This document shows positions 7,934-42,692 of a stretch of 64,000 bases of DNA, one piece after another. Every line of letters starts with the position of its first letter. Positions within the stretch are counted from its first letter, which is position 1. The position numbers and the translations under genes are program-made. The notes below the pieces were generated by a model. The model had not been told where the DNA came from. It saw only the letters and a program-made list of their open reading frames with translations, and did not search any database. Source of the stretch: an uncultured bacterium (lineage in GTDB: Bacteria; Bacillota_I; Bacilli_A; RFN20; CAG-826); contig CASGDR010000001.1 of NCBI GenBank assembly GCA_949300345.1, positions 131,835 to 195,834 of the forward strand, read 5' to 3'.

Positions 7934-8247
7934 ATGATTACCGTGGCGATGGCGTAGTCCCCGTCGTGGGCGATGGAGACCTCATATCGCTTCCCTTCGT
8001 AGATTAGAGTCGGAGACCCGTCTTCAAGATAGAGGATCTCGATTTGGTCAAGCGGGGCTAGCCCGAGGCCTTTCTTCATGGCCTTCATGAAGGCTTCCTT
8101 GGCGGCGAAGCGGCCGGCTAGGAATTCCTTCTTGTCCTTGCGCCGGTCGTATATCTCCCTCTCCTTGGAAGAGAGGATTTTCCCGACGAAGGCTTCGTCA
8201 AGCCGCATCCTGGGGATATAGACGATGTCGGTACCAAGCCTAGGCAT
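7930..8247 (-). CDS. acpS: Holo-[acyl-carrier-protein] synthase (4'-phosphopantetheinyl transferase)
   Basis: 105 aa with an N-terminal GTDIVYIPR motif. It overlaps pulA by 4 nt. Confidence 0.8.
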   Translation of the reverse strand: MPRLGTDIVYIPRMRLDEAFVGKILSSKEREIYDRRKDKKEFLAGRFAAKEAFMKAMKKGLGLAPLDQIEILYLEDGSPTLIYEGKRYEVSIAHDGDYAIATVII

Positions 8248-11200
8248 TCTCGCCCCCGCTTTCAGGGGCCGCTTCGTTTTCCCCGTTTAGATGTTCATAC
8301 AGTTCGGTTTCCGAGTGGATCAAGACCTTGCAGCCCTTATTGGAGAAGGCCGTATCGGGCTGGGCGGCCACCACCCCTTCCTTCTGCAGCCTAGCCATGA
8401 TCTTGCCCGAACGCGGGAATCCGACCGAGAAAGTGCGCTGGATATAGGAGGCCGAGGTGTAGTCCCTGGCCATGATCGCCCGCCTGATTTCCTCATAGGC
8501 TTCCTCGTCGGAAGCGGCCTTGAGTTCCTTAGTGGAAGGCCCGCTTGCGGCAGCGGCCGCGGCGGCCTCTTCCTCTTCCTCGGGATCCCTGAGGTCAAGG
8601 AAGTTAGGATCATATCTTGGCTTGGATTCCTTGCGGATGAAGTTGCAGACCTTGGCGATTTCCAGGTCGGTGACATAGCAGCCCTGCAGCCTCACCAAGG
8701 CATTGCGGCCGATCTCGAAGCAGTTGACGAGCATGTCGCCCTTACCGATGAGCTGTTCGGCCCCTTCGGTATCAAGGATGATGCGGGAGTTGATGCCGTT
8801 TTTGACCATGAGGGCAACCTGGACGCCGAGGTTGGCCTTGATGGAGCCGTCGACGATGTCAGCGGAGGGCCTTTGGGTGGCCAATATCACGTGGATGCCG
8901 GCGGCCCTAGCCTTTGCGGTAAGGCGGATGATGACCGAGTCGACGTCCTTGCAGTTGACCTTGAGGTCGGTGTATTCGTCGATGCAGACAACGATGAACG
9001 GCACCTTCTTCTTGCCGAATTCCTCGCACATGGAATTGTAGCCGCGGATATTGCTGACCCCTAGATCGGCGAAAAGGGCAAAGCGCCTTTCCATCTCGTC
9101 GCAGAGTTTCTGCAGTGCCATCTTGGCTTGGTTTGGAGCGGAGATAACGGGGCAAAGAAGATGGGGAAGGTCATGGTATTTCATGAATTCGACCGTCTTG
9201 GGGTCGACCATCACCAACCGCAGTTCCTCAGGGGTATTGCGCATGACCAAAGAGAGGATCATCCCGTTGACGAAGACGGATTTGCCCGAGCCGGTAGTCC
9301 CGGCCACGAGCATATGCGGGAAGTCGGCCATGTTGGCGGACATGCACTCCCCGGATATGGCCTTGCCAAAGGGAACGTACATGTTTTTCGAGCCATCGGA
9401 GTTATCCGGTAGCGCCAAGAACATTTCCTTGAAGGAAACCGAAGAGGTAAAGGTATTGGGAATCTCCAAACCGGAGGTGGTCTTGCCCCTAACGACCTGC
9501 TCGAAGCGGGCCCCGGTTCCGCCTAGACGGATATTGAGGTCGGTCATGTAGCGGGCCACCTGGCTGACCGAGGCGTCCTTGGCGGTCTGTAGGTCGAAGC
9601 GGGTAATCGAAGGCCCGATGGTATAGCCCACGGCCCTACAGGGAACCGAAAGGTCTTCGAAGATGGAGTTGATGGTAGCCATCTTCTCCTCTGCTTCGAA
9701 GATGAGCTTTTCCTCGTCACCGTTCTGGGGTATTTCGTTTAAAAGCTCGATGGGCGGGAGCACATAGGGAATCTCCGGTTCGGGCTCCGGTTCGGGTTCG
9801 GGCTCTGGTTGCGGGGCTGGAGCGGGCTTAGTTGCCGGCTGGGGTTTTGGAGCCGTAGGTGAGGGCGCGGGAGCGGGCTTGGGTGCTTCTTCAATAGACG
9901 GTGCCGGCTGGGGTTCGGGGACGATGGAAGGTATCTCGATGAGATTGTCTTCCTCTTCTGCTTCGGGAGTGGTTTCCTCTACTTTGGGCTCGCTTTGCGG
10001 GGAAATATCACCGATGGGCGCAATTTCCGGCTCGGGTTCGGGTTCGGAGGATAGCGGAACGGCAATAGGAGCCGGATCCGTCTTTATGGGCTCGCTTACT
10101 GCGGGCGCTACTACTTGTGCGGGCTTAGGAGCAGGGGCTTCCGGCTGGGCGGGAACCTGAAGGGAAGAGAGGCTTGGCACCGCGGTCGGGATTTCATAGA
10201 AAAGGCTTTCCTGGCTCGTGGTTTCGGGATTCTGGATCGGAGGCTGGGCCGGGGCGACCGGTTTGCTGCCGGGGGCCGAGAAAGTGGCCGGGTATAGGCC
10301 CGAATCGGAGAAATCATCCCTATCGAGGTTCAGGAAGATGGGATTATCGTCAGCCGGGATTTCCCGGGCGATGGCCGGGTTGTCAATACGCTCACGCATG
10401 GCGTTTTCAACCCTTGAAAGGGTAGGACGGCTAGCACGGGCGCGGCTTTCTTCCAATGAGCTTTCCTCCATCCCGGCGCTAACAAGGGATTCGCGGGATT
10501 CCTGCTCGTTGATGTATTTTTCATAGAAGGCCCTTAGTTCCTTCTCTTCCTTTTCGGATTCGATCAATTGGCGGCGGCTTTCCTTTTCTTCCTTCCGCTT
10601 GGCCTTGGCGATGGCCCGGTTGGCCCTAGCGCTCCTAAGAAGGATAGCGATGGGCCTAGAGAAAAGGATGATGAAGCCGATGATGATGAAAAGGACGGCA
10701 ATGATGAAGACCAGATAGGCCCCCGCCATGTTGAGGACAGCAGCAAGGCAATAGAACAGAGCGCCACCGCCGAGCTCACTAAGAAGGACCATATCCCCCT
10801 TATCGGGCTGCGAATTGATGAGGCCGAAGCCGATTTCCGGATTGCTTCCATCAAAGATGGAGAAGTCGCTAAGGGATTCATTTCCCCCGCTACCGGCATG
10901 GGCCATGATGAGGCCGAGTCCCACGAAGATGCAAAGGAAGGTCAGCATGATCTTCTTCCCACCCGGGTTTTCCGGAAGCGACCCCAGCAAAAGATAGGAA
11001 ATCCCCACCAGGATCAAAAAGGGAAGCATGAACCAGTAGCCGACCAGACCGAAGACATAGACGATGCCATATCCCACGCCCCAGAAGTTGGAAAACGGGG
11101 AAAGCATGGCAAAGACGCAGGCCAAAGAGAGGATCAAACCCGAAACTTTCTTGATGTCCTTGAAGCTGATGTCGCGTTTCGCCATAGATATCGGGGCCAT
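8240..11200 (-). CDS. ftsK: DNA translocase FtsK/SpoIIIE
   Basis: 986 aa. N-terminal TM helices, a long P/E/A-rich linker containing (PE)6, a Walker A motif GTTGSGKS, and a C-terminal gamma (winged-helix) domain. Confidence 0.9.
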   Translation of the reverse strand: MAPISMAKRDISFKDIKKVSGLILSLACVFAMLSPFSNFWGVGYGIVYVFGLVGYWFMLPFLILVGISYLLLGSLPENPGGKKIMLTFLCIFVGLGLIMAHAGSGGNESLSDFSIFDGSNPEIGFGLINSQPDKGDMVLLSELGGGALFYCLAAVLNMAGAYLVFIIAVLFIIIGFIILFSRPIAILLRSARANRAIAKAKRKEEKESRRQLIESEKEEKELRAFYEKYINEQESRESLVSAGMEESSLEESRARASRPTLSRVENAMRERIDNPAIAREIPADDNPIFLNLDRDDFSDSGLYPATFSAPGSKPVAPAQPPIQNPETTSQESLFYEIPTAVPSLSSLQVPAQPEAPAPKPAQVVAPAVSEPIKTDPAPIAVPLSSEPEPEPEIAPIGDISPQSEPKVEETTPEAEEEDNLIEIPSIVPEPQPAPSIEEAPKPAPAPSPTAPKPQPATKPAPAPQPEPEPEPEPEPEIPYVLPPIELLNEIPQNGDEEKLIFEAEEKMATINSIFEDLSVPCRAVGYTIGPSITRFDLQTAKDASVSQVARYMTDLNIRLGGTGARFEQVVRGKTTSGLEIPNTFTSSVSFKEMFLALPDNSDGSKNMYVPFGKAISGECMSANMADFPHMLVAGTTGSGKSVFVNGMILSLVMRNTPEELRLVMVDPKTVEFMKYHDLPHLLCPVISAPNQAKMALQKLCDEMERRFALFADLGVSNIRGYNSMCEEFGKKKVPFIVVCIDEYTDLKVNCKDVDSVIIRLTAKARAAGIHVILATQRPSADIVDGSIKANLGVQVALMVKNGINSRIILDTEGAEQLIGKGDMLVNCFEIGRNALVRLQGCYVTDLEIAKVCNFIRKESKPRYDPNFLDLRDPEEEEEAAAAAAASGPSTKELKAASDEEAYEEIRRAIMARDYTSASYIQRTFSVGFPRSGKIMARLQKEGVVAAQPDTAFSNKGCKVLIHSETELYEHLNGENEAAPESGGENA
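9772..9815 (-). repeat. Short tandem DNA repeat (ggttcgggctcc-type) encoding a (PE)6 tract in the FtsK linker
   Basis: The DNA periodicity is directly visible and encodes PEPEPEPEPEPE. Confidence 0.6.
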
Positions 11201-12921
11201 TAGGCCACTTCGATGAGCAGGGGCAGGACCATCGGCTCCTTGCCGGTGGAGCGCCTGATCGAGCGCAGGGATTTCTCATAGACCGTCTGCTTGATGGATT
11301 CGATGGAATATTCCTCGGAAGCCAGGCATTCCTCGACGGTAGAGACAAAGATCCGACTGACCTCGCGGATGATGGACTCCGCGTCTTTGACATAGACGAA
11401 GCCCCGCATCTGCACGTCGGGCCCTGCCACGATCCTGCGTTTGGATTTGGAGATGGTAAGGGCGAGGACCACCACGCCTTCGGCGAGCTTTTCGCGGTCG
11501 CTGAGGACCTTGGCCCCGACGTCCCCTACTCCCATGCCGTCGATCATCAGATCGCCATGGGGTATGTCCTCGTTGATGAGGCGTCCTCCCTTTTCGTCGA
11601 TGATGACGGTCAATCCGTTTTCGGGAAGGAAGACGTTTGAATGGTTGAGCTTGATGCCCATGGAAAGGGCCACTTCGGCATTGTTGAGAAGATCCTTGAA
11701 GAAGCCTTTGAGCGGAATGTAGTACTTGGGCTTGAGCAAGGAGAGCATCATCTTCAGGTCCTCTTCGGAGGCGTGCATCTTGCGCAGCTGCTTCTTGGAA
11801 AGGTTGATGACATGGGCCCCGGTGCGATAGAGCTCATCGACCGCATCGGTGAATTCTATTTCGGTATTGTCGTTGGCCGGGCAGGCGACTACGAAGGTAT
11901 CCGAAGCGTCCAAAACGATGCGCTTGTCCTCGTTTTGCCTAGCGGCCAAGAGGCCGATCTTGTTATAGAGATCGGGTCCGGCGGCCAGCATCATGATCAT
12001 TTCGTCGGAATCCTTGATGCGCAATATGTCATCTAGGGGCGCGAAATTCTCCTTGGGAATAGTGAGAACCGAAAGGGTGGAAAGGGTCTTCAGCGTTTCG
12101 GCTGTTTCCTTATCGTAGGGAATGATTTTCTTCCTAGAAGAAACCGCCATAGCCACGGCTTCGGAAATGTTATAGGTATTGGAAGCGAAAAGGGCGACGA
12201 AGACCCGGCCCTTGGCATCCTTGATATCGCGCTCCACCAAGGGGGCGAGCTTGTAGTTGGGGGCGGTATAGCCGGGATGGTCGGCGAATTTGGATTCGCT
12301 AAGCAATGCCAAAGTCGGTTCCTCGGCCAATTTGGCAATGGCCGCCATATCCTGCTGGAAGCCAGGCTTGGCATTGTTTTCGACCACGAAATCGCCGGAG
12401 AAGACGACATTGCCGAGGCTGGTGGAAATGGCCATGCCGCTGGAATCGGCGATGTTATGGGCCGTATGGAAATAGACGACCTTGCGACCGGCTACCTTGA
12501 AGGTGGAAGAAGGCGGGACTTCGTGGAAGTCATACATCTCCGGATCCATCTTGCGGCTGCGGGTAAAGGTCTTGAGCATCTCGATGGTAAAGCGGCTGGC
12601 ATATACCGGGGCAGGAACATCCTGATAGAAATAGGCAATGGCCGCCATATCGTCCTCGTCGCCTTGGAGCAGGAAATAGGCCTTCACGTCATCCTTGCGT
12701 TCGATCAGGTAGTCGTGCCTGGGTATGACATAGTCGATGCCAGGCAAGGTGCGGTCGGGATAGCGGACCCCGCAGCCGACCACGAAAAGGTCGCCCGAGA
12801 TGTCCAGAAGAACACAGTTCTTGCCGTCTTCGTCCAGACCGCCTAGGGAAATTAGTCTAATGGTATCGTTCATTTCTAAATCACTCTCTAAAAAACGCAA
12901 GGCTCCAAACCTTATAGCCAT
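11200..12921 (-). CDS. RNase J-like metallo-beta-lactamase/beta-CASP protein with degenerate active site
   Basis: 573 aa. Clear collinearity with B. subtilis RNase J1 (GIDYVIP..., HSIPDS->HNIADS, HTGDF->FSGDF). The HGHEDH zinc motif is replaced by QGDEDD, and the C-terminal motif-C His appears replaced by Lys (PIHGEY->PLKGFF). Confidence 0.75.
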   Translation of the reverse strand: MAIRFGALRFLESDLEMNDTIRLISLGGLDEDGKNCVLLDISGDLFVVGCGVRYPDRTLPGIDYVIPRHDYLIERKDDVKAYFLLQGDEDDMAAIAYFYQDVPAPVYASRFTIEMLKTFTRSRKMDPEMYDFHEVPPSSTFKVAGRKVVYFHTAHNIADSSGMAISTSLGNVVFSGDFVVENNAKPGFQQDMAAIAKLAEEPTLALLSESKFADHPGYTAPNYKLAPLVERDIKDAKGRVFVALFASNTYNISEAVAMAVSSRKKIIPYDKETAETLKTLSTLSVLTIPKENFAPLDDILRIKDSDEMIMMLAAGPDLYNKIGLLAARQNEDKRIVLDASDTFVVACPANDNTEIEFTDAVDELYRTGAHVINLSKKQLRKMHASEEDLKMMLSLLKPKYYIPLKGFFKDLLNNAEVALSMGIKLNHSNVFLPENGLTVIIDEKGGRLINEDIPHGDLMIDGMGVGDVGAKVLSDREKLAEGVVVLALTISKSKRRIVAGPDVQMRGFVYVKDAESIIREVSRIFVSTVEECLASEEYSIESIKQTVYEKSLRSIRRSTGKEPMVLPLLIEVA

Positions 12922-13007
12922 TATAGGCTATCGCAGGGGTCTATGTTTAGCCCTGAATGGTAAAAATGCAAATCGGGATCAAGAGGTTGCCAGAAGGCAT
13001 AGCCGAA

Positions 13008-13568
13008 CTACTTGGCTAGGTCCTTCCTGGGCCAAGGATAATCAAGCAGGGTTTCCAAGCTGTAAAGGTCCTTGATGCGGATGCCTTTATCGTCCCAAAT
13101 GGCAAAGCTGGGCCTTCTATCCTGTTTAGGGAAGGAGGCCGAGCCGGGATTGAGCCACAAAGCCCCATCTTTCTCAATGAGCCCATAGAGATGGGTATGT
13201 CCGGAAATATAGAGGTCTTGGGATCCCTGCAGCCTTTCAATGGAATAGTCGTCGCCATGGTACAAGGCGGTTTTGACCCCATTGATGTCCAGATAGACGA
13301 TATCCTCGAGGCAGGCAAATTTGAGAAGGTCGCGGTCGATGCGGGAATCGCAGTTGCCGATGCAGCCGTAGGTGATGCTTCCGTGTTTATTGAGAATCTG
13401 GCAGACCTCCATCGGCTCATAGTCCTCGGGTACCCCGTTGCGGGGACCGTTGTACATGAAATCCCCAAGCAAAAAGATCAGATCGGGTTTTTCTTCAGAG
13501 ATGATTTCCTCAAGCCTAGAAGCGGCCTTGACCCTTCCATGGATGTCGCTTGCAATCAGTATTTTCAT
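13008..13568 (-). CDS. YfcE-like metallophosphoesterase (phosphodiesterase)
   Basis: 186 aa with the motifs MKILIASDIHGR and GDFMYNGP. Confidence 0.7.
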   Translation of the reverse strand: MKILIASDIHGRVKAASRLEEIISEEKPDLIFLLGDFMYNGPRNGVPEDYEPMEVCQILNKHGSITYGCIGNCDSRIDRDLLKFACLEDIVYLDINGVKTALYHGDDYSIERLQGSQDLYISGHTHLYGLIEKDGALWLNPGSASFPKQDRRPSFAIWDDKGIRIKDLYSLETLLDYPWPRKDLAK

Positions 13569-13921
13569 TTCTTTACCTCGATGTCGCGGGTGGCGATGAT
13601 CTTACAATCTATGCCTAGCGGCTTATCGTAGACCACATCGCCTAATTTAATCGGAGCGTTGATTTTGATGGTTTTCAGGAAAAGGGAGATTTCTTTTTGC
13701 TTGTCCCTAGGTACCCCAGAATCGGACCTAACGGGGCAGCGGGTCATGGTGCCTCCACTGACTTTGACCGTTGTAGTCAGCGTACGCCTAGGATCAAAGG
13801 TCTCCTGACGTCCATAGGTGGCTCCTCGGGGACAGGAATTGCCACTGACATTTCCTGACTCATCGACTCTCAGGTGGCATGACCTAGGGCAGATAATGCA
13901 CACAAACTCCTTGGTGCTCAT
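13565..13921 (-). CDS. DUF1667-domain protein (small Cys-rich subunit of the GlpA-like dehydrogenase cluster)
   Basis: 118 aa with CxxC motifs. It is the third gene of a three-gene cluster with two FAD oxidoreductases. Confidence 0.6.
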   Translation of the reverse strand: MSTKEFVCIICPRSCHLRVDESGNVSGNSCPRGATYGRQETFDPRRTLTTTVKVSGGTMTRCPVRSDSGVPRDKQKEISLFLKTIKINAPIKLGDVVYDKPLGIDCKIIATRDIEVKK

Positions 13922-15189
13922 GGGTCTACCTCCTTGTCGACTACTGAAACGACTATAGGTTGTTGGTTGTTTTCTAGTAGTTTTTTAGGAATTGATATAA
14001 TTTCCAGTTCACTAGGCAACAACGCTAGTTTTACTATCTTTCTAAGTAGTTTGTCCCCTTGTTTGATTTCAACAGAACATTGTTTGTGCGGTTTTCTGGC
14101 CCTGAATTTGAGCTTCAGAATCTCATTCGGCCCGTTGAGATCTACATGCTCAGGCAAAACATAGGAAATACCATCCCCTACGTTGACATCTAGCAAGCAT
14201 TTCTCATTCTGGGTTTCCCCAAGAACGAATCGGGCCGCTGATAAGCCAGCTTGCCTACCCTCGTCCAAAGCGAAGTCGGCAAGGTCATGGATATGTAGGA
14301 CATTGCCTGCGGTGAAGATGCCTGGCACGCTGGTCTCTAGCGAATCATCGACTTCAGAGCCTTTGGCGCGACCTTGTTTGATACCAATGTTATTTAATAA
14401 TCCATTGTTGGGAATCAAGCCGACGGAAAGTATCAATGCGTCGCATTCATAGATTTTTCCGGTGCCAGCGATGGGCTGGAGTTTATCATCCACTTCCACT
14501 ATCTCCACGGCTTCTAGACGCTCGCGCCCGATAACCCTTCCGACCGTATGGCTGAGCAATAAAGGAATCCCAAAATCATCCAGGCATTGGACCTTGTTCC
14601 TCAATAGTCCGTTGCTATATGGCATGATCTCGGCCACGGCCAAGACCTTGGCCCCTTCTAGGCTGAGCCTTCTAGCCATGATAAGACCGATATCGCCCGA
14701 GCCTAGGATAAAGACCTTCTTCCCGACCATATAGCCCATTTCGTTTAGGGCAAGCTGGGCTTCCCCTGCCGGCATCACGCCTTTTGGCCTATCGCCGGGC
14801 ACGGCAATGGCCCCGGCCGTCCTTTCCAAGGAACCGGCCGCCATGACCACGGCTTTGGCGTATACCTTCACGAATCCTTCCTTTGGAGATAGGTAGGTCA
14901 ATACCTTGTCTGGAGTAAGGGAGGTTACGAAAGCTTCGGTCCTATATTCGATTCCCCTTCTTTTGACTTCATTGGCCAAACGGGTTAAAAACTCAGGGCC
15001 GGTCAGCTCTTCTTTGTATTCATTGAGGCCGAATCCGGCATGGATGCACTGATTTAGGATGCCACCGAGATTGGCCTTTTTTTCAAGGATGAGGATGTCC
15101 CTAACCCCATGATCATAAGCGGCCACGGCAGCCCCTAGTCCGGCCGCTCCGGCTCCGATGATGGCTATATCGACATGCTTTTCCATCAA
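13918..15189 (-). CDS. FAD/NAD(P)-binding pyridine nucleotide-disulfide-type oxidoreductase (GlpB-like subunit)
   Basis: 423 aa with N-terminal IGAGAAG and a second Rossmann motif GSGDIG. Confidence 0.65.
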   Translation of the reverse strand: MMEKHVDIAIIGAGAAGLGAAVAAYDHGVRDILILEKKANLGGILNQCIHAGFGLNEYKEELTGPEFLTRLANEVKRRGIEYRTEAFVTSLTPDKVLTYLSPKEGFVKVYAKAVVMAAGSLERTAGAIAVPGDRPKGVMPAGEAQLALNEMGYMVGKKVFILGSGDIGLIMARRLSLEGAKVLAVAEIMPYSNGLLRNKVQCLDDFGIPLLLSHTVGRVIGRERLEAVEIVEVDDKLQPIAGTGKIYECDALILSVGLIPNNGLLNNIGIKQGRAKGSEVDDSLETSVPGIFTAGNVLHIHDLADFALDEGRQAGLSAARFVLGETQNEKCLLDVNVGDGISYVLPEHVDLNGPNEILKLKFRARKPHKQCSVEIKQGDKLLRKIVKLALLPSELEIISIPKKLLENNQQPIVVSVVDKEVDP

Positions 15190-16610
15190 TCCAACTCCTC
15201 GTAGAAGCCTTTTAGCCCGGTAGAACCGTCGTCCTTGAGACTATTTCCCTTCAATATGACCCGGATATTGGGTTCGCAGAACGAGCCGCCGCATTTGCCG
15301 AATCCGGCCCTGATCCTAAGTTTAAGCATCCTGTATCCGTTGGTGGGCACGGCCCTAGAAAGCAGGTCCTTGACCTCCCCTAGGGTTATCTTTTCGCAGC
15401 CGCAGACGATTTTGCCATAGGCCGGATTCCTAGCGATAAGCGCATCCCTTTCCTCGGGTTTTAGAGTCAGGGGCTTGATATAGGGCCTTACCCTCGGATT
15501 GAAATCATCCTTTTGCACTAGGTTTAGGTTTAGCGCGACCAGCTGTTCTATCACATGCCTAGCGATGGCCGGAGCCGACGCCAAACCCGGGGATTCGATG
15601 CCTGCGCAGTTGATGAAGCCCTTGTGTCCTGGGGCTTCCTCGATGATGAAATCATGGGTCGAAGGCGTAGCCCTAACCCCGGCAAAGACGCGGATTATCT
15701 GGTCCAAAGGGAGTTTCGGGGCAATTTTCAGGGCTCCTTCCTTGACCATCTTCAGGGTGATGGGATCGGTGGATTTGTCATTCAAGTCATCCTCAAATTC
15801 GCTGGAAGGACCAAGCAAGTAGTTATAAGCCGTGGTCGGAACCACCAGGATGCCCTTTCCTTTCTCGCTGGGAAGCGGGAAAAGGACGTGCTTAATGAAG
15901 GAGGGATCGAAATGGTCGAGGACATAGTATTGGCCCTTGCGAGGCAAGATCTTCCAATCGTGATCATAAAGCAAGGAAGCGATGTCCGCGCTATGGACGC
16001 CGGCGCAGTTGATGAGGACTTTGCAGGCATATTCGCCTTTGTTTGTCTTTACTAGGTAGCCGCCTTCTTTTTCGCAAATGGCGACAACTTCCTCGGAAGT
16101 GTGCAGTTCCACCCCGTTTTCGATGGCGTTTTCAAAGGCATGGGCCACCAAGGTAAAGGGATTGATGATGGCGGCCGGGGCCCATAGGGCGGCGGTAGCC
16201 TTTTTGGAGACATTGGGCTCTGCCTTTTGGAGTTCTTCCTGGTCTAAGATGCGGGTTTCTACCCCGTTTAGCTTGCCCCTTTCCTGAAGCTCTTTTAGGA
16301 CATCCTCGTCCTGTTTACCAAAGGCAAGGGTCAAGGAACCGATGGGTTTGAAAGAGACATCGAGATCCTTGCAGATCTGGGGATACATGGCCGCCCCGGC
16401 TACATTGAACAGGGCCTTCTTGGTGCCAGGCTTAGGGTCATAGCCCGAATGGACGATGGCGGAATTGGCGCTGGAGGTGCCCTCTCCGACATCCCTTTGC
16501 TTTTCGATAACCAAAACCGAAACCTTATAGCGGCTCAGTTCGCGAGAGACAAAAGCCCCGATTACCCCGCCGCCGACGATAAGAGCATCGTAGATTTGCC
16601 TGTTGGACAT
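15186..16610 (-). CDS. FAD-dependent glycerol-3-phosphate dehydrogenase-like oxidoreductase with C-terminal BFD-like [2Fe-2S] domain (GlpA-like)
   Basis: 474 aa with N-terminal VGGGVIGAFVSRELS and C-terminal Cys motifs CGCE....C..GGSFC. Confidence 0.7.
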   Translation of the reverse strand: MSNRQIYDALIVGGGVIGAFVSRELSRYKVSVLVIEKQRDVGEGTSSANSAIVHSGYDPKPGTKKALFNVAGAAMYPQICKDLDVSFKPIGSLTLAFGKQDEDVLKELQERGKLNGVETRILDQEELQKAEPNVSKKATAALWAPAAIINPFTLVAHAFENAIENGVELHTSEEVVAICEKEGGYLVKTNKGEYACKVLINCAGVHSADIASLLYDHDWKILPRKGQYYVLDHFDPSFIKHVLFPLPSEKGKGILVVPTTAYNYLLGPSSEFEDDLNDKSTDPITLKMVKEGALKIAPKLPLDQIIRVFAGVRATPSTHDFIIEEAPGHKGFINCAGIESPGLASAPAIARHVIEQLVALNLNLVQKDDFNPRVRPYIKPLTLKPEERDALIARNPAYGKIVCGCEKITLGEVKDLLSRAVPTNGYRMLKLRIRAGFGKCGGSFCEPNIRVILKGNSLKDDGSTGLKGFYEELD

Positions 16611-16802: not shown

Positions 16803-19022
16803 CTACTTATGGAATTTCTTATCGCTACGATGGGGATTTCCGCCGCGGAAGGAACCGTTGCCTTTGCTCGAATTCCTCGGTCCGCGTTCGGGGCGCTCGA
16901 CATAGTCGGCCGGCTTTTCGATGCACTGGCGGTGGCTGACTTTGACCTTGCCGTCTTCGATGCCGATGACCACGACCTGCAGCTTATCCCCGACCGAGAC
17001 CACGTCATGGGCGTTTTCGATGTACTTCCAGTCAAGCTGGGAGACATGGCAGAGCCCGTCGGTATCACCGAAGAGGTTGACGAAGGCGCCGTAGTCTTCG
17101 ACGCGGTTGACGGTCCCTTCGAAGATTTCGCCGATCTTGGCTTCCCTGACGATGTCGTCGATGATGGATTTGCCCTTTTCGATCATTTCCTTATCGACAT
17201 GGTAAAGGGTGACCTTGCCATCGTCTTCGACGTCGATCTTCAAGCCGTTGCAACGGGCGATGATGTCATTGATGACCTTGCCGCCGGTACCGATGACATC
17301 GCGGATCTTGTCCGGATCGATGTAGAAGGTAACCATCTTGGGAGCGTACTTGCTGACCTCGCTCCTGGGGGCGGGGATGACGGCTTCCATGGCAGCGCGG
17401 ATTTCGCCCCTGGCCTTATGGGCCTGGGCGAGGGCCTCGCTTAGGACCTCGCGGGTAACCCCGTGGATCTTGATGTCCATCTGCAGTGCGGTGACGCCTT
17501 TGGCGGTACCGGCTACCTTGAAGTCCATGTCGCCGAAGTGGTCTTCTAGACCCTGGATGTCGGTGAGGATGGTATAGGGATGGTTGCCATCGAGGGGGCC
17601 GGAAGAGATCAGGCCCATGGCAATGCCGGATACGACGCCCTTGATGGGGACGCCGGCAGCCATCAAAGAGAGGCAGTTGGCGCAGATGGAAGCCTGGGAG
17701 GAAGAACCATTGGACTCCACGACGTCGGCGACGCAGCGGATGGTGTACGGGAATTCCTCAACCGAAGGAAGCACGCCCTTGAGGGCCTTCTCGCCGAGGG
17801 CGCCATGTCCGATTTCGCGGCGGCCAGGGCTACCCATGCGTCCGATTTCGCCGACGCTGAAAGGCGGGAAGTTATAGTGATGCATGAAGGTGCGGGTTTC
17901 TTCGGAGGTCAGATTGTCGATGATCTGGGCTTCGGAAATGGGACCTAGGGTCGTGGTGCCGATGACCTGGGTCTGGCCGCGGGTGAACATGGCCGAGCCA
18001 TGGACGCGGGGCAAGAGGTCAACCTGGACGTCAAGGGGACGGATTTCGTCGACCTTGCGGCCGTCGGGACGGATCTTTTCCTCGGTGATGAGGCGGCGGA
18101 CTTCGTTGGCCACCATCTCTTCGAGGATGTCGGCGACCATCATCATGGTCTTGGCATGGGCCTTTTCGTTCTCATAGGGCCTAGCGTCGTAATCTTCGAT
18201 GATTTCGTTCTTCAAGGCGTCGATGGCGTCCTGCCTTTCGAGCTTGTCGAAGATGGAAATGGCCTTGACCATCCTCTCGCCGATGCGGGAGTAGATGTCC
18301 TCCTTGATCTCCGGGGTCGGGGCATAGAGGTCGATGTGGCGCTTTTCCACGCCGATATCGGCGATGATCTTTTCTTGGAATTCGCAGAGCTTCTTGATGG
18401 CCTCATGTCCGAACATGATGGCGTCGAGCATTTCCTCTTCGGGAACCTCAAGGGCCGAGGATTCGACCATCATGATGGCATCCTTGGTGCCGGCCACGGC
18501 GAGGGAAATATCGGAATTCTTGGCTTCTTCTTCGGTCGGGTCGATGATCAACTGGCCATTCACGCGTCCCACATAGACGCCGGCGACGGGTCCCTCGAAG
18601 GGAATGTCGGAGAAGCATAGGGCAAGGCTGGAGCCGAGCATGCCAGTCATTTCGGGAGTGTTGTTGCGGTCGACCGACATCACGGTGTTGACGATCTGGA
18701 CTTCATTGCGGAAACCATCGGCGAACAAAGGACGGATCGGGCGGTCGATCAGACGGGCCGATAGCGTGGCGTGCTCGCCGGGGCGGCCTTCGCGGCGCAG
18801 GAACGATCCCGGGATCTTTCCGACCGAATAGGCCTTTTCCTCATAGTTGACGGTGAGGGGGAAGAAATCCCCTTCCTTGGGTTTGTCCGCACAGCAGGCG
18901 GTGGAGAGGACGACCGTGTCGCCGAAACGCACCAAAACGGCCCCGTCGGCCTGTTTGGCAATCTCTCCGTTCTCGACTACCAGTTTCCTTCCGGCAAAAT
19001 CGAGCTCGAATGTCTTTTTCAT
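16803..19022 (-). CDS. pnp: Polynucleotide phosphorylase (PNPase)
   Basis: 739 aa with two RNase PH domains, a KH domain and an S1 domain, collinear with PNPase. Confidence 0.9.
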   Translation of the reverse strand: MKKTFELDFAGRKLVVENGEIAKQADGAVLVRFGDTVVLSTACCADKPKEGDFFPLTVNYEEKAYSVGKIPGSFLRREGRPGEHATLSARLIDRPIRPLFADGFRNEVQIVNTVMSVDRNNTPEMTGMLGSSLALCFSDIPFEGPVAGVYVGRVNGQLIIDPTEEEAKNSDISLAVAGTKDAIMMVESSALEVPEEEMLDAIMFGHEAIKKLCEFQEKIIADIGVEKRHIDLYAPTPEIKEDIYSRIGERMVKAISIFDKLERQDAIDALKNEIIEDYDARPYENEKAHAKTMMMVADILEEMVANEVRRLITEEKIRPDGRKVDEIRPLDVQVDLLPRVHGSAMFTRGQTQVIGTTTLGPISEAQIIDNLTSEETRTFMHHYNFPPFSVGEIGRMGSPGRREIGHGALGEKALKGVLPSVEEFPYTIRCVADVVESNGSSSQASICANCLSLMAAGVPIKGVVSGIAMGLISSGPLDGNHPYTILTDIQGLEDHFGDMDFKVAGTAKGVTALQMDIKIHGVTREVLSEALAQAHKARGEIRAAMEAVIPAPRSEVSKYAPKMVTFYIDPDKIRDVIGTGGKVINDIIARCNGLKIDVEDDGKVTLYHVDKEMIEKGKSIIDDIVREAKIGEIFEGTVNRVEDYGAFVNLFGDTDGLCHVSQLDWKYIENAHDVVSVGDKLQVVVIGIEDGKVKVSHRQCIEKPADYVERPERGPRNSSKGNGSFRGGNPHRSDKKFHK

Positions 19023-19590: not shown

Positions 19591-22482
19591 ATGAAAAGAG
19601 CCCGTCCTCTAACCCTTTTGCTGGCCAGCGGCGTTTTTGCCCTAGCCGGCTGCGGCCCCACCAGTGACAGCTCTTCGGAGTCTTCCTCGACTGATACCAC
19701 TGCATCGAGCTCATCTTCCGACACTACGCCGGACCCCTCACCCAACCTCATCAAAGACGAAACCTCAGGCGACCTGAACATCTATCTCTATACGGAAGAG
19801 TCGGCCGAGAACCGAAATTCGGTCTGGATGTGGGTAGATGGCGGGACCTCGCATGGCTATGTTGGCTCCGAAAGGGGCAAGGAAGCCGTAGAGGGCATCG
19901 ATAGCGACTTCAAATTCATCTCCGTCCACATCAAGTTCAATAAGGACTACGAAACCTATTCGGATTGGGATTTCTCCGCAAAATCCACCTTGAATCTCTC
20001 TGGCATCGACGATGCGGAAATCCCAGAAGGGATCATCTTCCGTTCCAGCGATGGCACTAACCAAACCAGCGACATCGCCTTGGACAAGACCCAGATGGTG
20101 GCGACCTCCGGGGTCTATAACGTCTACGTCCATGAAGAAAAGGGCGTCTTCTATTCCCCGGATGATTTCCCCACCGCCCCCATCCAAGAGGGCTTCTATA
20201 GGGAAGATGCGCTGGATGGAAATAGCCAAGCCGGACCCAAGGTCGTGGCCCAGGGCGTGGACCTTGATGAGATCTTTACTTCCTTTGGAAAAGATCGCGC
20301 CTACCTGCGCCCCTATACCTACTCCGAAAATGGGGAGAAGGTCTATGGCGAGGACATCGCTTTCGATGCCGCCTCTTCCTCGGTCACTGAAACCCAGGTG
20401 GTCCTAGGACTAGGCGAAAACCTCGACATCACCAAACTCTATGAATTCATGGTCTACTCCCCCAGCGATGCCTCCGTCATCTCCAATGGGGACCTGAATT
20501 TCTGCCGCTTCTATAGCGACGATACCTATGATGCCAAATACTCCTCCGATCTCGAGCTCGGGGTGAGCTTCTCCGAAGGGGTAGGCACCGCTAGGCTCTA
20601 TTCGCCTAGGGCCAGCGCCATTTCCATCAACATCTATGGCGAGGACCACACTAACCTCCCCGAAAGCCCCACCCAACACGAAATGAGCAAGGACGCCAAC
20701 GGGGTCTGGTCCTATAGCGGCGCCGACCTCAAGGACGGCACCTATTACACCTTCGACATCAACCTCTTCGGTAGGACCGATAGCGACGTGCCCGATCCCT
20801 ACGCCTATTCCAGCAACGCCAACGCCCAGTACTCCATGGCGGTCGACTTCGATAAGGTCGAAGAGCTCTACTCCGGCCCCCTTTCTCCCGAATACTTGGC
20901 TCCTGAGATCACCATCATGGAAATGCATGTCCGCGATTTTACGGCCCATTCTTCCTGGAACGGCACCCATAAGGGCAAGTTCCTCGGGCTCATCGAGGAA
21001 GGCACTTCCTATCAGAACCACGCTACCGGATTCGACTACGTCAAGGAACTCCATGAAAAGGGCCTGACCCACATCCAGATCCTCCCCTCCTATGACTTCA
21101 ACTCGGTCGATGAGACCAGGCTTGATGACCAGGAATACCAGGATGCCCCCTATGGCGGCATCTATAACTGGGGCTATGACCCGGCCCAATACAATGCTCC
21201 TGAAGGCTCCTACTCCACCGACCCCACCGACGGCACCAAGAGGGTGAGCGAATTCGCCCAGTTCGTCGCCGGCTATAGGGAAGCGGGCATCGGGGTGGTA
21301 CTCGATGTGGTCTATAACCATATGCCTAGCCAAGCCGGTACCGCCTTCGACCGCGTCTTCCCCGACTACTATTTCCGCTCCGTCAACTATTCGGGTGCCG
21401 GAAGCGACATTGCCTCCGAGCACGGCATGGTCCGCAAGTTCATCGTCGACTCGGTCGTCCATTATGCCGAGCACTATGGCATCAACGGCTTCCGCTTCGA
21501 CCTCATGGGCCTGCTTGATTTAGAAACCATGGAAGAAGTCAGGATTGCCCTAAATGAGATCGATCCCAACATCATCGTCTATGGCGAGGGCTGGAGCATG
21601 TTCAGCGGCGACCCGATGAGCGACATCAACGAAACCGACATGGCTTCCCAACGCTATCTGGCCAACATGGGCGAGAATTTCGTCGGGGCCTTCAACGATT
21701 CCTACCGCGATGGCGTGAAGGGCTCGGTCTTCGATGCGGCCGGAAAGGGCTATGTGCAAAAGGCCTTGGAAGGCGCTAGCGGATCGACCATTTCCAAGGG
21801 CGAGATCTACTTTGGCCTCTCAGGCACGACCCGGGTGGGAACCGTCGGCTATAGCTACTCCAATGACGAAAGGGCCCTCTTCTCCTCGATCGCCTATGTC
21901 GAGTGCCATGACAACATGACCCTCTACGACAAGATGATGGTGTCCCTGGATGATCCTAGCGCTGATATCGGCGTGGCCCTATCCATGTCCAATTCCTCGG
22001 TGCTGAGTTCCCTCTCCCCGGCCTTCTTCCAGCTCGGACAGAGCTTCGGCCGCAGCAAGTCCTTCACCGATGAAAAATACAAGGTCGAAGGCAAGTGGGT
22101 CGAAGACCCCAATAACGAAGGGGTCTATTACTCCACCGACTCCTATAACCTCTCCGATGCCGTAAACGCCATCGACTGGGGATTATTGGAAACCCACGCC
22201 GATTGGGAAAGCGACTTCCGCGAGCATCTCAATAACCGCCGCACCCGCGCCCTATTGCTCGATTCCGAATTCGGAAGGACCGACATGAAGGATAGCGAAG
22301 TGATGGTCTGGGACTATGGACTTGAAAGCGGTACCTCCCAACGCAACGTCGTTTCCTTCAAGATCAATTACAAGGGAAGCGAAATCCTCCACGTCCAAAA
22401 CTATGGTTCGACCCCCGTCACCATCGATGGCCACGTCATCGAGGCGGAGGGCATCTACTATAGCCAAAGCAGCGGGAACTAA
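19591..22482 (+). CDS. Secreted lipoprotein pullulanase/amylopullulanase-like GH13 enzyme
   Basis: 963 aa. Signal peptide with lipobox LAGC, a Ser/Thr-rich linker, then GH13 motifs YNWGYDPAQY, GFRFDLMG and YVECHDN. A strong RBS, aggaggtaaatt, precedes the ATG. Confidence 0.85.
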   Translation: MKRARPLTLLLASGVFALAGCGPTSDSSSESSSTDTTASSSSSDTTPDPSPNLIKDETSGDLNIYLYTEESAENRNSVWMWVDGGTSHGYVGSERGKEAVEGIDSDFKFISVHIKFNKDYETYSDWDFSAKSTLNLSGIDDAEIPEGIIFRSSDGTNQTSDIALDKTQMVATSGVYNVYVHEEKGVFYSPDDFPTAPIQEGFYREDALDGNSQAGPKVVAQGVDLDEIFTSFGKDRAYLRPYTYSENGEKVYGEDIAFDAASSSVTETQVVLGLGENLDITKLYEFMVYSPSDASVISNGDLNFCRFYSDDTYDAKYSSDLELGVSFSEGVGTARLYSPRASAISINIYGEDHTNLPESPTQHEMSKDANGVWSYSGADLKDGTYYTFDINLFGRTDSDVPDPYAYSSNANAQYSMAVDFDKVEELYSGPLSPEYLAPEITIMEMHVRDFTAHSSWNGTHKGKFLGLIEEGTSYQNHATGFDYVKELHEKGLTHIQILPSYDFNSVDETRLDDQEYQDAPYGGIYNWGYDPAQYNAPEGSYSTDPTDGTKRVSEFAQFVAGYREAGIGVVLDVVYNHMPSQAGTAFDRVFPDYYFRSVNYSGAGSDIASEHGMVRKFIVDSVVHYAEHYGINGFRFDLMGLLDLETMEEVRIALNEIDPNIIVYGEGWSMFSGDPMSDINETDMASQRYLANMGENFVGAFNDSYRDGVKGSVFDAAGKGYVQKALEGASGSTISKGEIYFGLSGTTRVGTVGYSYSNDERALFSSIAYVECHDNMTLYDKMMVSLDDPSADIGVALSMSNSSVLSSLSPAFFQLGQSFGRSKSFTDEKYKVEGKWVEDPNNEGVYYSTDSYNLSDAVNAIDWGLLETHADWESDFREHLNNRRTRALLLDSEFGRTDMKDSEVMVWDYGLESGTSQRNVVSFKINYKGSEILHVQNYGSTPVTIDGHVIEAEGIYYSQSSGN

Positions 22483-39810: not shown

Positions 39811-39836
39811 AAAAAGACCGGGGATTTCACTCCCCA
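39811..39836 (-). terminator. Rho-independent terminator overlapping stop of serine recombinase
   Basis: On the minus strand, GGGGAGTGAAATCCCC is followed by GGTCTTTTTAT. Confidence 0.55.
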
Positions 39837-41407
39837 GCCTTGATGGTGGCCTCATAGCCGCAATAGAATCTGAACGTTATTGATTTGTCCCTATGGACGA
39901 TTGCCTTCTCCAGCGTGAAATTGAATATCGCCTCATCCCAGTCGAGCATTGCCTCGCCTTTTCGGAGCGTCGCAAGGAAGGCTTCGAGGTTCCCGGCTTT
40001 CAGCCTCTTCCCCTCCTTCTCGCCGATGAGTTTCTTGCATTCCTCTTCCTTCCTTTTGTATTCATCCTCGAGCTCTGCGTACTTTCTTCGCCAAACTGCT
40101 TGATCCTGCGGGCTTCTGGTGTTCATCTTCACCAGCAGGTTGAACTCCTTCGACATCTCCTCGAGTTCCTTTTTTAGCCCGCCGATGTCCGCATCGAGCT
40201 TGGAAGTGTCGGTAAGCAACGACATCGCGGCTTGGATGTCATCCATGACCGTCTCCTTGCCCGAAATCATCAGGTTGTAGGCTTTCATGAACCTTGCCTT
40301 TATGTCCTCTTCCTCCAGGTTCGGCGTATGGCATTTGTTCCTGAACTTGTCGTTGCACTGGATGATCTCCTTTTCATGGGGAGTCCCGGAATGCCACTTC
40401 TTCTTTCCGTAGTACCCGCCGCAGTCCTCGCATATCAGCCTGGCCGCAAAAGGGTTCTTGTACGAGTAGGAATAGCTAAGCTCCTTCCTTCTGTGGATTT
40501 CTATCTGCACCAGCTCCCAGTCCTCCTTCGGGATGATGGTCGGATGCGAATCATGAACATAGTATTGAGGGACCTCGCCTTCGTTCTTCTTCGTCCTGTG
40601 CTGGAGGAAGTCGACCACGAAGCTTTTCTGAAGGAGGGCGTCGCCTTTGTATTTCTCGTTCTGGAGTATGGAGAGGGCGGTCGTCTTCGTCCACTTCGTC
40701 TTCCCCTTCGGCGTCAGTATCCCGTCCTTCATCAAGTCGGAGCAGATCTTGCCGATGCTCTCGCCCTTGAGGAAGCGGTAGTAGATCCTCCTAACGGTTT
40801 CCGCCTCCTGCTCGTTTATCCTGATCTCGCCGTTCTCGCCCTTTTCGTACCCGAGGAAGGCTTTGTAAGGCATGCTTACCTTCCCGTCGGCGAATCTCTT
40901 TCTCTGCCCCCAAGTGACGTTTTGGGAGATTGACCTGCTTTCCTCCTGAGCCAAGCTCGACATGATGGTGATGAGGAGCTCGCCCTTGGAGTCGAAGGTG
41001 TTGATGTTCTCCTTCTCGAAATAGCACTCGACGTTGTGCTCCTTGAGCTTCCTTATGTTCACCAAGCTATCGACGGTGTTGCGGGCGAATCTGGATATGG
41101 ACTTGGTGATTATCAAATCGATCTTCCCGCCGAGGGCATCGTCGATCATCCTTTTGAAGCCTTCTCTCCTTTTGGTGTTGGTCCCGCTGATGCCTTCGTC
41201 CGTGTAGACGCCCACGAGTTCCCAATCGGGCCTTCTTTTGATGTAATTGGTGTAATAGTCCACTTGGGCCTCATAGGAGGTCTGCTGCTCCTCTTGGTCT
41301 GTCGAGACGCGGGCGTAGGCGGCAACCTTCCTCTTCCTTAAGCTGCCTTGGGGAAGCCTGGTCAATGGATTTATGGTTGGCTCAATCTTGGTTATCGTTC
41401 TTGCCAT
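39827..41407 (-). CDS. Large serine recombinase (resolvase/recombinase/zinc-ribbon/coiled-coil), CcrB-sized
   Basis: 526 to 536 aa. N-terminal resolvase domain AAYARVSTDQ...Y with a catalytic Ser, a recombinase domain, a Cys zinc ribbon and a C-terminal coiled coil. The ORF extends to 41437. Start placed at MARTITK (41407). Confidence 0.8.
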   Translation of the reverse strand: MARTITKIEPTINPLTRLPQGSLRKRKVAAYARVSTDQEEQQTSYEAQVDYYTNYIKRRPDWELVGVYTDEGISGTNTKRREGFKRMIDDALGGKIDLIITKSISRFARNTVDSLVNIRKLKEHNVECYFEKENINTFDSKGELLITIMSSLAQEESRSISQNVTWGQRKRFADGKVSMPYKAFLGYEKGENGEIRINEQEAETVRRIYYRFLKGESIGKICSDLMKDGILTPKGKTKWTKTTALSILQNEKYKGDALLQKSFVVDFLQHRTKKNEGEVPQYYVHDSHPTIIPKEDWELVQIEIHRRKELSYSYSYKNPFAARLICEDCGGYYGKKKWHSGTPHEKEIIQCNDKFRNKCHTPNLEEEDIKARFMKAYNLMISGKETVMDDIQAAMSLLTDTSKLDADIGGLKKELEEMSKEFNLLVKMNTRSPQDQAVWRRKYAELEDEYKRKEEECKKLIGEKEGKRLKAGNLEAFLATLRKGEAMLDWDEAIFNFTLEKAIVHRDKSITFRFYCGYEATIKAGE

Positions 41408-42692
41408 ATAGCCTTTCCAGCTCCCTTCTTCTGGCATCTTCTTTCATCTCAGGTGTCCACGAATCCTTTCTCGACTTGAATTCGAAGTGCAGCGTCTTGA
41501 TGCTTCCGTCCATGAAGACGAAATCGACGTCCTTGCTTTCGTGGACGACTATCCTGTCTATCTTCTCCTTGAACGCCTTCTCGTCGAACTCCTTTATGCC
41601 CAACGCTTGGTTCGTCAGCTCGTAAAGGGTGTCTTCCCTAAGGGCGAGCGTCTGGCGGCATGCCGACTTCGAGAGGACGCTCATCGTCCCGCACGCCCAG
41701 AAGGTCCTGTATTTCGAATTCTTCCTCACGTAGTTCTTCCCGCATGTGGCGCACTTCAACTTCTTGGTGAAGGGGCTCAGGTTGTTGTTCGGTCCATAGC
41801 GGACCGGCCTTCTTTTCTCCATCAGCTCCTGCGCCCTGAGGAATTCCTCTTTGCCGACTATTGCATCGTGGTCCTCCGCGACCTTGTAAAGTGAGTATTT
41901 CCCAATATTCGCCTTGCAGTGCTCGTTTATGCCGCAAGAATACCTCCCCAGGACCAGCTCCCCTGTATAGGTCGGGTTCCTGAGTATCCATCTAACGGTG
42001 CTCTCCCTCCAAATGGATCCCATGGGCGAGGGGATCCCGTCCCCGTTGAGCCTCCTGGCAATCTTCTGGGTGCCGACGCCCTGTTTGGCGTACTCATCGA
42101 ATATCCTCCTTACTACCTTCGCTTCCTCCTCCTTGATTTCGTATCTTCCGTTCACCACCTTGTATCCGAAGAAATCGTGGAGCCCCCAGACCTTGCCTTC
42201 CTCGAAGAACTTGCCTACTTTCCACCTTACGTTGTTGGACATCGACACGACCTCCTCCTCGGCAAAACCTGCCAATAGGGAAAGCATCAGTTCCCCGTCC
42301 ACGCTCATCGAATGCATGTTCTGCTCCTCGAAGTAGACGTCGACGTTGAGCTTTTTTAGAAGCCTCGTCGTCTCCAAAAGCAGCATGGTGTTCCTCGCGA
42401 ACCTCGATATCGATTTGGTGACGATCATGTCGATTCTGCCCTGCTTGCAGTCCTCGATCATTCGATTGAATTCCGGTCTGTTGGCCTTGGTCCCGCTTAT
42501 CCCCTCGTCGGCGTAGATCCCGGCGAACATCCAGTCGGGGTTGCTTGATATGTAGTCCTGGTAATAGGACACCTGCGCCACAAATGAATGGAGGGTGGCG
42601 TCCTTGCTTACGGAGACCCTGCAATAGGCGGCAACCTTCTTCTTGCTCGGAAGGGTTGGCTTGGCTTTGATCTTCACTATTTGCCTATCCAT
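41382..42692 (-). CDS. Large serine recombinase (CcrA-sized), overlapping the downstream recombinase gene
   Basis: 436 aa with a resolvase N-terminus AAYCRVSVSKD, a recombinase domain and a zinc ribbon CATCGK. Confidence 0.8.
   Translation of the reverse strand: MDRQIVKIKAKPTLPSKKKVAAYCRVSVSKDATLHSFVAQVSYYQDYISSNPDWMFAGIYADEGISGTKANRPEFNRMIEDCKQGRIDMIVTKSISRFARNTMLLLETTRLLKKLNVDVYFEEQNMHSMSVDGELMLSLLAGFAEEEVVSMSNNVRWKVGKFFEEGKVWGLHDFFGYKVVNGRYEIKEEEAKVVRRIFDEYAKQGVGTQKIARRLNGDGIPSPMGSIWRESTVRWILRNPTYTGELVLGRYSCGINEHCKANIGKYSLYKVAEDHDAIVGKEEFLRAQELMEKRRPVRYGPNNNLSPFTKKLKCATCGKNYVRKNSKYRTFWACGTMSVLSKSACRQTLALREDTLYELTNQALGIKEFDEKAFKEKIDRIVVHESKDVDFVFMDGSIKTLHFEFKSRKDSWTPEMKEDARRRELERLYGKNDNQD

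Follow-up and report, generated by a model that had tools for sequence, protein, structure and literature searches.

A probable RNase J2 that keeps three of seven metal ligands in an uncultured lineage of the Bacillota

The DNA considered here, hereafter the window, is a stretch of 64,000 nucleotides of contig CASGDR010000001.1 from an uncultured bacterium. This report concerns one of its genes, a minus-strand open reading frame (ORF) of 573 codons at 11200-12921 that encodes a full-length homologue of ribonuclease J (RNase J) and is referred to below as rnj. The gene lies in a conserved housekeeping neighbourhood, as had been proposed from the sequence before the present analysis (the original prediction). 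The minus-strand order is rimP-nusA-infB-rbfA-truB-ribF...rpsO-pnp-(three glpA-like genes)-metallophosphoesterase-rnj-ftsK; ftsK stands directly after rnj in all 68 related GTDB loci with enough flanking sequence, and pnp precedes rnj in 48 of 59. The features of the window are collected in Table 1.

Residues are numbered on the 573-codon ORF, and the true start is probably M17 at 12873, which gives a protein of 557 amino acids (aa). This start is preferred because the relatives are 557 aa long, a sequence resembling a ribosome-binding site (RBS), GAGAGTGA, lies upstream of M17, and the upstream ATG falls within a TATAAT box. The promoter-like match that contains this box is weak by itself; four such sites were observed against 7.7 expected in shuffles. 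An Rfam scan of the window gave no RNA family match.

Table 1. Positions of the gene, its motifs, its neighbours and the defence genes, counted from the first letter of the window
Feature	Position	Strand	Basis or context
RNase J2-like coding sequence, likely true, 557 aa, stop codon included	11200..12873	-	relatives' length, RBS-like GAGAGTGA, structure alignments, predicted fold
Upstream in-frame ORF extension, 16 codons, probably untranslated	12874..12921	-	without RBS, not in relatives, ATG overlaps TATAAT
Promoter-like site TAAACA-18-TATAAT, 10/12, just 5' of the gene	12920..12949	-	consensus match only
Motif II, QGDEDD for HGHEDH (Q86, D88, D90, D91)	12649..12666	-	alignment
Motif III His, H155 (= B. 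subtilis J1 H142), ligand retained	12457..12459	-	alignment
Motif IV Asp, D177 (= D164), bridging ligand retained	12391..12393	-	alignment
beta-CASP domain, aa 237-346	11884..12213	-	PF22505, 35.2 bits, cut-off 27
Motif B His, H383 (= H368), retained; flanked by K381/M382	11773..11775	-	alignment
Motif C position, K405 for His390	11707..11709	-	alignment
D467, equivalent of partner residue D449, just upstream of C-terminal domain	11521-11523	-	alignment
RNase J C-terminal (dimerisation) domain	11206..11508	-	PF17770, 72.9 bits
K561, equivalent of B. subtilis interface residue R544, inside C-terminal domain	11239-11241	-	alignment
ftsK, immediately downstream of rnj (conserved rnjB-ftsK pair)	8240..11200	-	gene order in related loci
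pnp (PNPase), upstream of rnj, within conserved rpsO-pnp...rnjB-ftsK order	16803..19022	-	gene order; PMC4419217
Large serine recombinases, two	39827-41437; 41382-42692	-	defence island
Hachiman-like pair: HamA; DEAD helicase	44072-45532; 45525-48110		defence island
647-aa ORF without Pfam domain	48120-50063		defence island
GmrSD	50112-52166		defence island
Type I restriction-modification (R-M): HsdR; HsdS/HsdM	52156-55236; ~57.5-60.2 kb		defence island

The protein has the three-domain architecture of RNase J, that is, a metallo-beta-lactamase (MBL) domain with an inserted beta-CASP domain, and a C-terminal domain. Its best match among solved structures is RNase J2 of Staphylococcus epidermidis (6k6w; E=4.3e-95, 322.7 bits, residues 17-572 on 21-571, identity about 28-31%), followed by the RNase J1 structures of Bacillus subtilis (3zq4; 262.7 bits, E=6.8e-77) and S. 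epidermidis (261.4 bits). The Pfam models of the RNase J beta-CASP and C-terminal domains score above their cut-offs, the Lactamase_B model misses the N-terminal domain, and RMMBL stays below its cut-off (13 bits against 21.6). Two NCBIfam models also fall short, namely TIGR00649 (RNase J; 359.6 bits against a curated cut-off of 400) and RNase_J1_RnjA (360.9 bits against 820). An AlphaFold2 model built from 40 family sequences reached a mean predicted local distance difference test (pLDDT) score of 85.5 and a predicted template-modelling score (pTM) of 0.74, and its top fold match is chain A (RNJ2) of the RNJ2-RNJ1 integrative model 9a5v (E=1.1e-54). Superposed on S. epidermidis J2, the core of the model that holds the active site gives a template-modelling (TM) score of 0.90 and a root-mean-square deviation of 2.7 A, and comparison with RNase J structures over the full length gives TM scores of 0.72-0.76. 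The end-to-end alignment to solved structures and the predicted fold therefore uphold the earlier residue-level identification of an RNase J homologue.

Sequence comparison and gene position show further that the gene is orthologous to rnjB (RNase J2). When 1.84 billion cluster representatives were searched exhaustively with HMMER, 7780 hits were obtained, and the best 150 of these, restricted to proteins of at least 500 aa (about 140), were placed together with five window-family members and PDB references in a neighbour-joining (NJ) tree based on Kimura distances. In this tree, a clade of 68 representatives (hereafter the J2 clade) holds the window family, S. epidermidis J2 and the cluster P0153, to the exclusion of B. 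subtilis J1, S. epidermidis J1 and the Paenibacillaceae J1 P0175, with a bootstrap of 46/60. P0153, the nearest relative whose active site is intact, also resembles J2, scoring 668 bits to J2 and 594 to J1. As for gene position, a sister J2 family (Turicibacter, Haloplasma) shows the order rpsO-pnp-...-dpaA-dpaB-asd-dapG-dapA-rnj-ftsK, which we take to be that of the B. subtilis rnjB neighbourhood, dapA-rnjB-(tepA)-ftsK. The PNPase and RNase J2 genes of S. aureus carry adjacent locus tags (SAR1250 and SAR1251; PMC4419217), and characterised RNase J2 genes resemble the window gene in lying downstream of pnp and adjoining ftsK. The likeness to a further-degenerated RNase J2, which the original prediction had raised, is thus supported by the PDB scores, the NJ tree and the gene position, with a motif II that has moved beyond the HGHDEN and HGHEHA of characterised J2.

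The state of the active site was read with B. subtilis J1 and S. epidermidis J1 and J2 as rulers, their sequences being taken from the PDB alignments. Seven metal ligands were counted, in B. subtilis J1 numbering H74, H76, D78, H79, H142, D164 and H390. The site B ligands H74, H76, H142 and D164 correspond to Q86, D88, H155 and D177 of the window protein, and the site A ligands D78, H79, D164 and H390 to D90, D91, D177 and K405; three of the seven are kept (D90, H155 and D177) and four are substituted (H74Q, H76D, H79D and H390K). The first reading of the motifs, HGHEDH to QGDEDD in motif II and PIHGEY to PLKGFF in motif C, agrees with these alignments, and the motif alignment is not shifted, as no intact HxHxDH exists anywhere else in the protein. 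The statement that all zinc-ligand histidines had been replaced went too far, because the motif III ligand H155 survives. The motif B histidine (H368) is also retained as H383, and in the 5'-phosphate pocket it is preceded by K381/M382, where the reference proteins have S-G (S366/G367 in B. subtilis J1) or S-S. A change of one base would turn the codon of Q86 (CAA), and likewise that of D88 (GAC), into a His codon. It is important to note that an inability to bind metal is a step beyond these observations; Gln, Asp and Asp are all potential ligands of hard metals.

The window protein belongs to a family with more than 120 clusters at least 54% identical to it in the protein database and 145 relatives in a scan of GTDB species representatives. 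Family counts were made on 80 of the 145; the window species itself is not among them, and the best match is 73% identical. The 80 are labelled Candidatus Enteromonas, Candidatus Alloenteromonas, uncultured Mollicutes, Erysipelotrichaceae or Bacilli, and the family comes mostly from metagenome-assembled genomes of gut and rumen. NCBI places Alloenteromonas in Bacillota incertae sedis, and the family presumably corresponds to the GTDB order RFN20. Some relatives lie on contigs of 1.41-1.49 Mb, which points to small genomes.

The usual state in this family is H-H-D-[E/Q/V/A]-H-D ... K/R, or HGHDD[E/Q]...K when motif II is written out, with site B intact and site A lacking two of its four ligands. 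None of the 80 representatives keeps H79 or H390, whereas H74 and H76 are both kept in 76; the combination Q-H occurs in three, and Q-D only in the window species. The four closest protein clusters (three GTDB species) read QGHEDD. Because Q-H is common to the closest species and Q-D is confined to the window species, the ligand loss was stepwise, with site A lost first across the whole family, then H74Q and then H76D. With three of seven ligands, the window protein is mid-range for the J2 clade and at the extreme of its own family. A second, independent loss at site B is found within the family in the GTDB representative CAMYXQ01 (L072, 1376-3049), which reads N-H-E-E-Y...R.

Ligand loss is widespread across the J2 clade. 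At least one of the seven ligands is absent in 67 of the 68 representatives, the same 67 being without the motif C histidine, and 21 of the 68 have two ligands or fewer, including a branch with the Mesoplasma photuris 'ribonuclease J' (1/7); outside the clade, all seven are present in 74 of 81 representatives. Lys or Arg occupies the motif C position in 39 of the 68 (P0121-P0237), and also in nearly all members of the window family. A basic side chain appears to be favoured by selection at the place of metal A, a pattern that does not resemble neutral decay.

Two related observations touch on this pattern. The sister family mentioned above (L007, 10001-11698; clusters P0166 and P0309-P0427) is large, occurs in Turicibacter, Haloplasma and Mycoplasmatota-labelled genomes at the rnjB position, and has all ligands except the motif C histidine, which is Ile there (PVIGEY); it may represent an early stage of J2 degeneration. 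Motif II is also degenerate (SGK--Y) in P0180, a protein that falls together with the J1 of B. subtilis and S. epidermidis, so ligand loss may not be confined to the J2 clade.

The gene is under strong purifying selection and is not decaying. The ratio of nonsynonymous to synonymous substitution rates (dN/dS) is 0.215 against the closest relative (73% identity) and 0.19 against a more distant family member, with a range of 0.19-0.25. Between the same two genomes, rnj, at 73% aa identity, ranks second in conservation among 11 syntenic genes, behind the PNPase gene. Among 178 alignment columns in which a residue is at least 90% conserved in the family, the window protein departs in eight (family median five, maximum 17), and three of the eight lie in or adjoining motif II. 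At least six contigs from several ENA assemblies carry the identical protein, with flanks that differ by 0.3-0.8%, and over 21.7 kb two of these contigs are 0.3% and 0.8% divergent from the window; QGDEDD is present in all six members of the window protein's 90% cluster. The motif is therefore not a sequencing error, and the earlier view of a full-length gene under selection holds, with a dN/dS of about 0.2, the second rank in conservation and an intact 557-aa ORF. We considered and discarded the lack of single-nucleotide polymorphisms in the gene across three strains as a sign of special constraint, as the look-up was by exact protein sequence and the polymorphisms in the flanks are patchy.

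Published work on RNase J2 provides the frame in which these losses can be read. In B. subtilis, the J2 motif is HGHDEN, the half-lives of targets stay the same in the H76A mutant of J2, and its deletion stabilises about one third of transcripts; J2 was named a specificity factor or cofactor of J1, with D449 and R544 as interface residues (bioRxiv 10.64898/2026.05.27.728192). In S. aureus, J2 has HGHEHA, and the H76A-G-H78A mutant grows like the wild type whereas the deletion does not, from which a structural role was proposed (PMC3937233). Staphylococcal J2 carries one Mn2+ at site B, also proposed to be structural, and has weak in vitro activity for which only H80 and E166 mattered, H76A having no effect and H78A raising the activity (PMC7864078, PMC11815676); the S. 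epidermidis enzyme is most active with Ca2+ (PMC7864078). Both J1 and J2 occur in all Mollicutes analysed (PMC4014445).

The window protein resembles the RNase J2 of B. subtilis, S. aureus and S. epidermidis in its three-domain fold, with the best match in both sequence and structure, and shares with them a degenerate motif II, the loss of the motif C histidine, and a conserved dimerisation domain with its salt-bridge residues. In the family, the equivalent of D449 is Asp in 118 of 120 members and that of R544 is Lys or Arg in 118 of 120. The differences lie in the former metal site. The characterised J2 proteins keep the first two histidines of motif II and bind one Mn2+, whereas the window protein has Gln and Asp there; at the D78 and D164 positions it has Asp, where staphylococcal J2 has His and Glu; and it has Lys against Gln in motif C and K-M-H against S-S-H in the 5'-phosphate pocket. 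RNase J1 and the single-copy RNase J of T. thermophilus, D. radiodurans and M. tuberculosis share the MBL, beta-CASP and C-terminal architecture (E=1e-52 to 1e-77), but these are catalytic 5'-3' exo- and endonucleases with all seven ligands, as opposed to three in the window protein. The Mollicutes-type RNase J2 (for example M. photuris WP_031543288) falls in the same J2 clade and likewise retains a full-length protein despite far-reaching ligand loss; it belongs to another sub-branch (about 32% identity to the window protein), has 0-2 of the seven ligands and has also lost the motif III histidine.

A parallel logic is known from CPSF100-CPSF73 and IntS9-IntS11, in which a degenerate MBL/beta-CASP paralogue is the obligate partner of an active one (bioRxiv 10.64898/2026.05.27.728192). 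CPSF100 and IntS9 arose by independent duplication in another domain of life, with 11-16% identity and without the RNase J C-terminal domain. The fold search with the window protein also returned CPSF73 and IntS11 complexes as distant matches.

We consider that the gene, the rnjB orthologue of an uncultured gut or rumen bacterium with a small genome from the Enteromonas/Alloenteromonas group, probably works like characterised RNase J2, that is, as a structural subunit or specificity factor paired with an intact J1, with little or no cleavage of its own. The RNase J fold, the dimerisation domain and the interface salt-bridge residues are kept under purifying selection, which argues that the selected trait is not metal-dependent hydrolysis at this site; the J2-clade lineages with 0-2 of seven ligands argue in the same way that the conserved function of the clade is independent of the active site. 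The analysis shows the J2 identity, the ligand losses with their order, and the selection; we infer that catalysis has been lost, that the protein forms a heterodimer and that J1 is present. Site A had already been lost throughout the family, with H79 changed to Glu, Gln or Asp and the motif C histidine to Lys; site B was then dismantled in the window lineage in two single-base steps, first H74Q, common to the closest relatives, and then H76D, in the window species only. The C-terminal domain would pair with a catalytically intact RNase J1 encoded elsewhere, and this pairing may stabilise, stimulate or direct J1, affecting its stability, activity or substrate choice. In the Q-G-D of the window protein, nature has in effect produced an equivalent of the AGA and H76A mutants made in the laboratory. 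The suggestion of a non-catalytic partner, made before this analysis, is in line with J2 genetics in S. aureus and B. subtilis (PMC3937233; bioRxiv 10.64898/2026.05.27.728192).

Several points weigh against this interpretation. At 77%, the bootstrap value of the J2 clade is moderate, and the tree behind it is a simple NJ tree with Kimura distances. Gln, Asp and Asp would be able to coordinate hard divalent cations, and with D90, H155, D177 and H383 still in place, some residual or altered catalysis may be possible. Alanine at two of the positions changed here did not lower the in vitro activity of staphylococcal J2 (PMC11815676). As regards the label of pseudoenzyme, ligand loss and purifying selection are both seen in the window gene, but it is doubtful that a J2 protein needs the residues lost here for catalysis, given that the staphylococcal alanine mutants are active in vitro. 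Finally, an intact J1 partner elsewhere in the genome is assumed. In the window itself, a tblastn search with the protein over all six frames recovered nothing but its own gene; J1 was also not found in about 10 kb beyond the left end of the window, the flanks of 88 related loci held no second RNase J, and two database searches for a J1 sharing long contigs with family members yielded no shared contigs.

The candidates that these searches brought up were all rejected. A search seeded with P0166 led to the rnjB-position family with Ile in motif C (Turicibacter, Haloplasma), one seeded with P0255 led to a Clostridia-type RNase J with no shared contigs, an apparent match of 3569 bp between contigs of protein clusters was a coincidence, and P0175 is a Paenibacillaceae J1 and not the partner. 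Three MBL-fold genes in the left flank (548, 402 and 346 aa) were likewise set aside, as they are ComEC/Avs1a-like and have neither a beta-CASP nor an RNase J C-terminal domain. These three stand in tandem between mnmA and alaS, from 1-332 of the window (minus strand) onward past its left end and at 11195-15325 of L089, and show weak similarity to the MBL domain of ComEC and to Avs1a.

The alternative that survives best, though we regard it as unlikely, is a ribonuclease that is still active with a re-tooled centre. A carboxylate-rich pocket formed by D88, D90, D91 and D177 together with Q86, H155 and K405 would hold Ca2+, Mg2+ or Mn2+ in place of Zn2+, or the protein would use the acid-base mechanism proposed for staphylococcal J2. 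All of the substitutions are to potential metal ligands and none is to a hydrophobic residue, and the Lys or Arg of motif C is conserved in those 39 J2-clade representatives and in nearly all of the family. S. epidermidis J2 binds a single Mn2+ and peaks in activity with Ca2+ (PMC7864078), and the in vitro activity of S. aureus J2 depends on no residues but those at the D78 and D164 positions, which the window protein retains as D90 and D177, with alanine at two positions changed here being neutral or activity-raising (PMC11815676). On the other hand, the activity of characterised J2 lies orders of magnitude under that of J1, and in vivo the J2 active site can be dispensed with (bioRxiv 10.64898/2026.05.27.728192; PMC3937233). 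Other lineages of the J2 clade have gone down to 0-2 of the seven ligands. We know of no active RNase J with a Q-x-D-x-D-D centre.

It is improbable that the genome has no RNase J1 at all and that the window protein is its sole RNase J homologue, with an RNA-binding, scaffold, regulatory or pnp/ftsK-linked function. The fruitless searches for J1 in the window, beyond its left end, at the 88 related loci and in the database speak for it, as do the small genomes suggested by relatives on contigs of 1.41-1.49 Mb and the score of the protein below the NCBI curated RNase J cut-off. Yet only about 84 kb of a genome of at least about 1.4 Mb is visible, which makes the absence of J1 uninformative, and in other phyla the single-copy RNase J proteins have retained every ligand (74/81 outside the J2 clade). 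Residues of the dimer interface are conserved, and J2 has been described only together with J1 (bioRxiv 10.64898/2026.05.27.728192; PMC4014445). Still less probable is a lineage without a catalytic RNase J1 in which the ligand-poor protein is either a metal-free or hard-metal nuclease, with the motif C Lys replacing metal A, or an RNA-binding or scaffold protein; were J1 indeed missing, this would be a lineage of the Bacillota with RNA decay that lacks the canonical 5'-3' exonuclease.

A decaying pseudogene or an assembly or sequencing artefact, to which the lost catalytic residues and the failure of the Lactamase_B model on the N-terminal domain might point, is refuted by the intact 557-aa ORF, the same allele in several independent assemblies and strains, a dN/dS of about 0.2 with conservation above nine of ten neighbouring genes, only eight of 178 family-invariant positions altered, and the confident fold prediction.

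The degenerate zinc motif and the dispensable catalytic centre in RNase J2 were already known, as was, from experiments, its largely non-catalytic character, and one further gene by itself adds little. Only the comparative pattern seen in the J2 clade and the Lys that is conserved at the former metal position go beyond prior knowledge. The gene is still of use as a natural experiment, in which nearly the same change as that engineered in J2 (AGA in S. aureus, H76A in B. subtilis) was made stepwise and under continued purifying selection, while relatives keep both histidines. The pattern in the J2 clade, with ligands lost repeatedly and motif C held as Lys or Arg, adds comparative support for the model of RNase J2 as a structural subunit or specificity factor. 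Public records label such proteins 'ribonuclease J', and many of them cannot be canonical metallonucleases.

Among the genes around rnj, FtsK contains a low-complexity, Pro-, Ala- and Glu-rich linker of some 300 aa. In public gene calls the protein is 981 aa long and begins 15 nt past the stop codon of rnj, not at the overlapping ATG. Between pnp and rnj, 13008-16610 (minus strand) encodes a glpA-like trio (DAO/BFD, Pyr_redox_2 and DUF1667) and a YfcE-like metallophosphoesterase. The trio and the metallophosphoesterase occupy the place of dpaAB-asd-dapG-dapA in L007, genes that presumably stand there in Bacillus as well. Between rpsO and pnp, an ORF of 963 aa on the plus strand (19591-22482) has only a faint alpha-amylase Pfam match and is conserved in other strains of the window species.

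The right-hand part of the window, 39827-64000, is probably an integrated defence island with a lower GC content of 0.42-0.48; its genes are listed in Table 1. The gene at the right end of the window, of 283 aa, recurs on a separate contig of 34.8 kb (L090) that carries phage portal, capsid and tail genes together with type I R-M genes. On L090, the phage genes lie next to the region on the side that, in the window, would fall past the right end.

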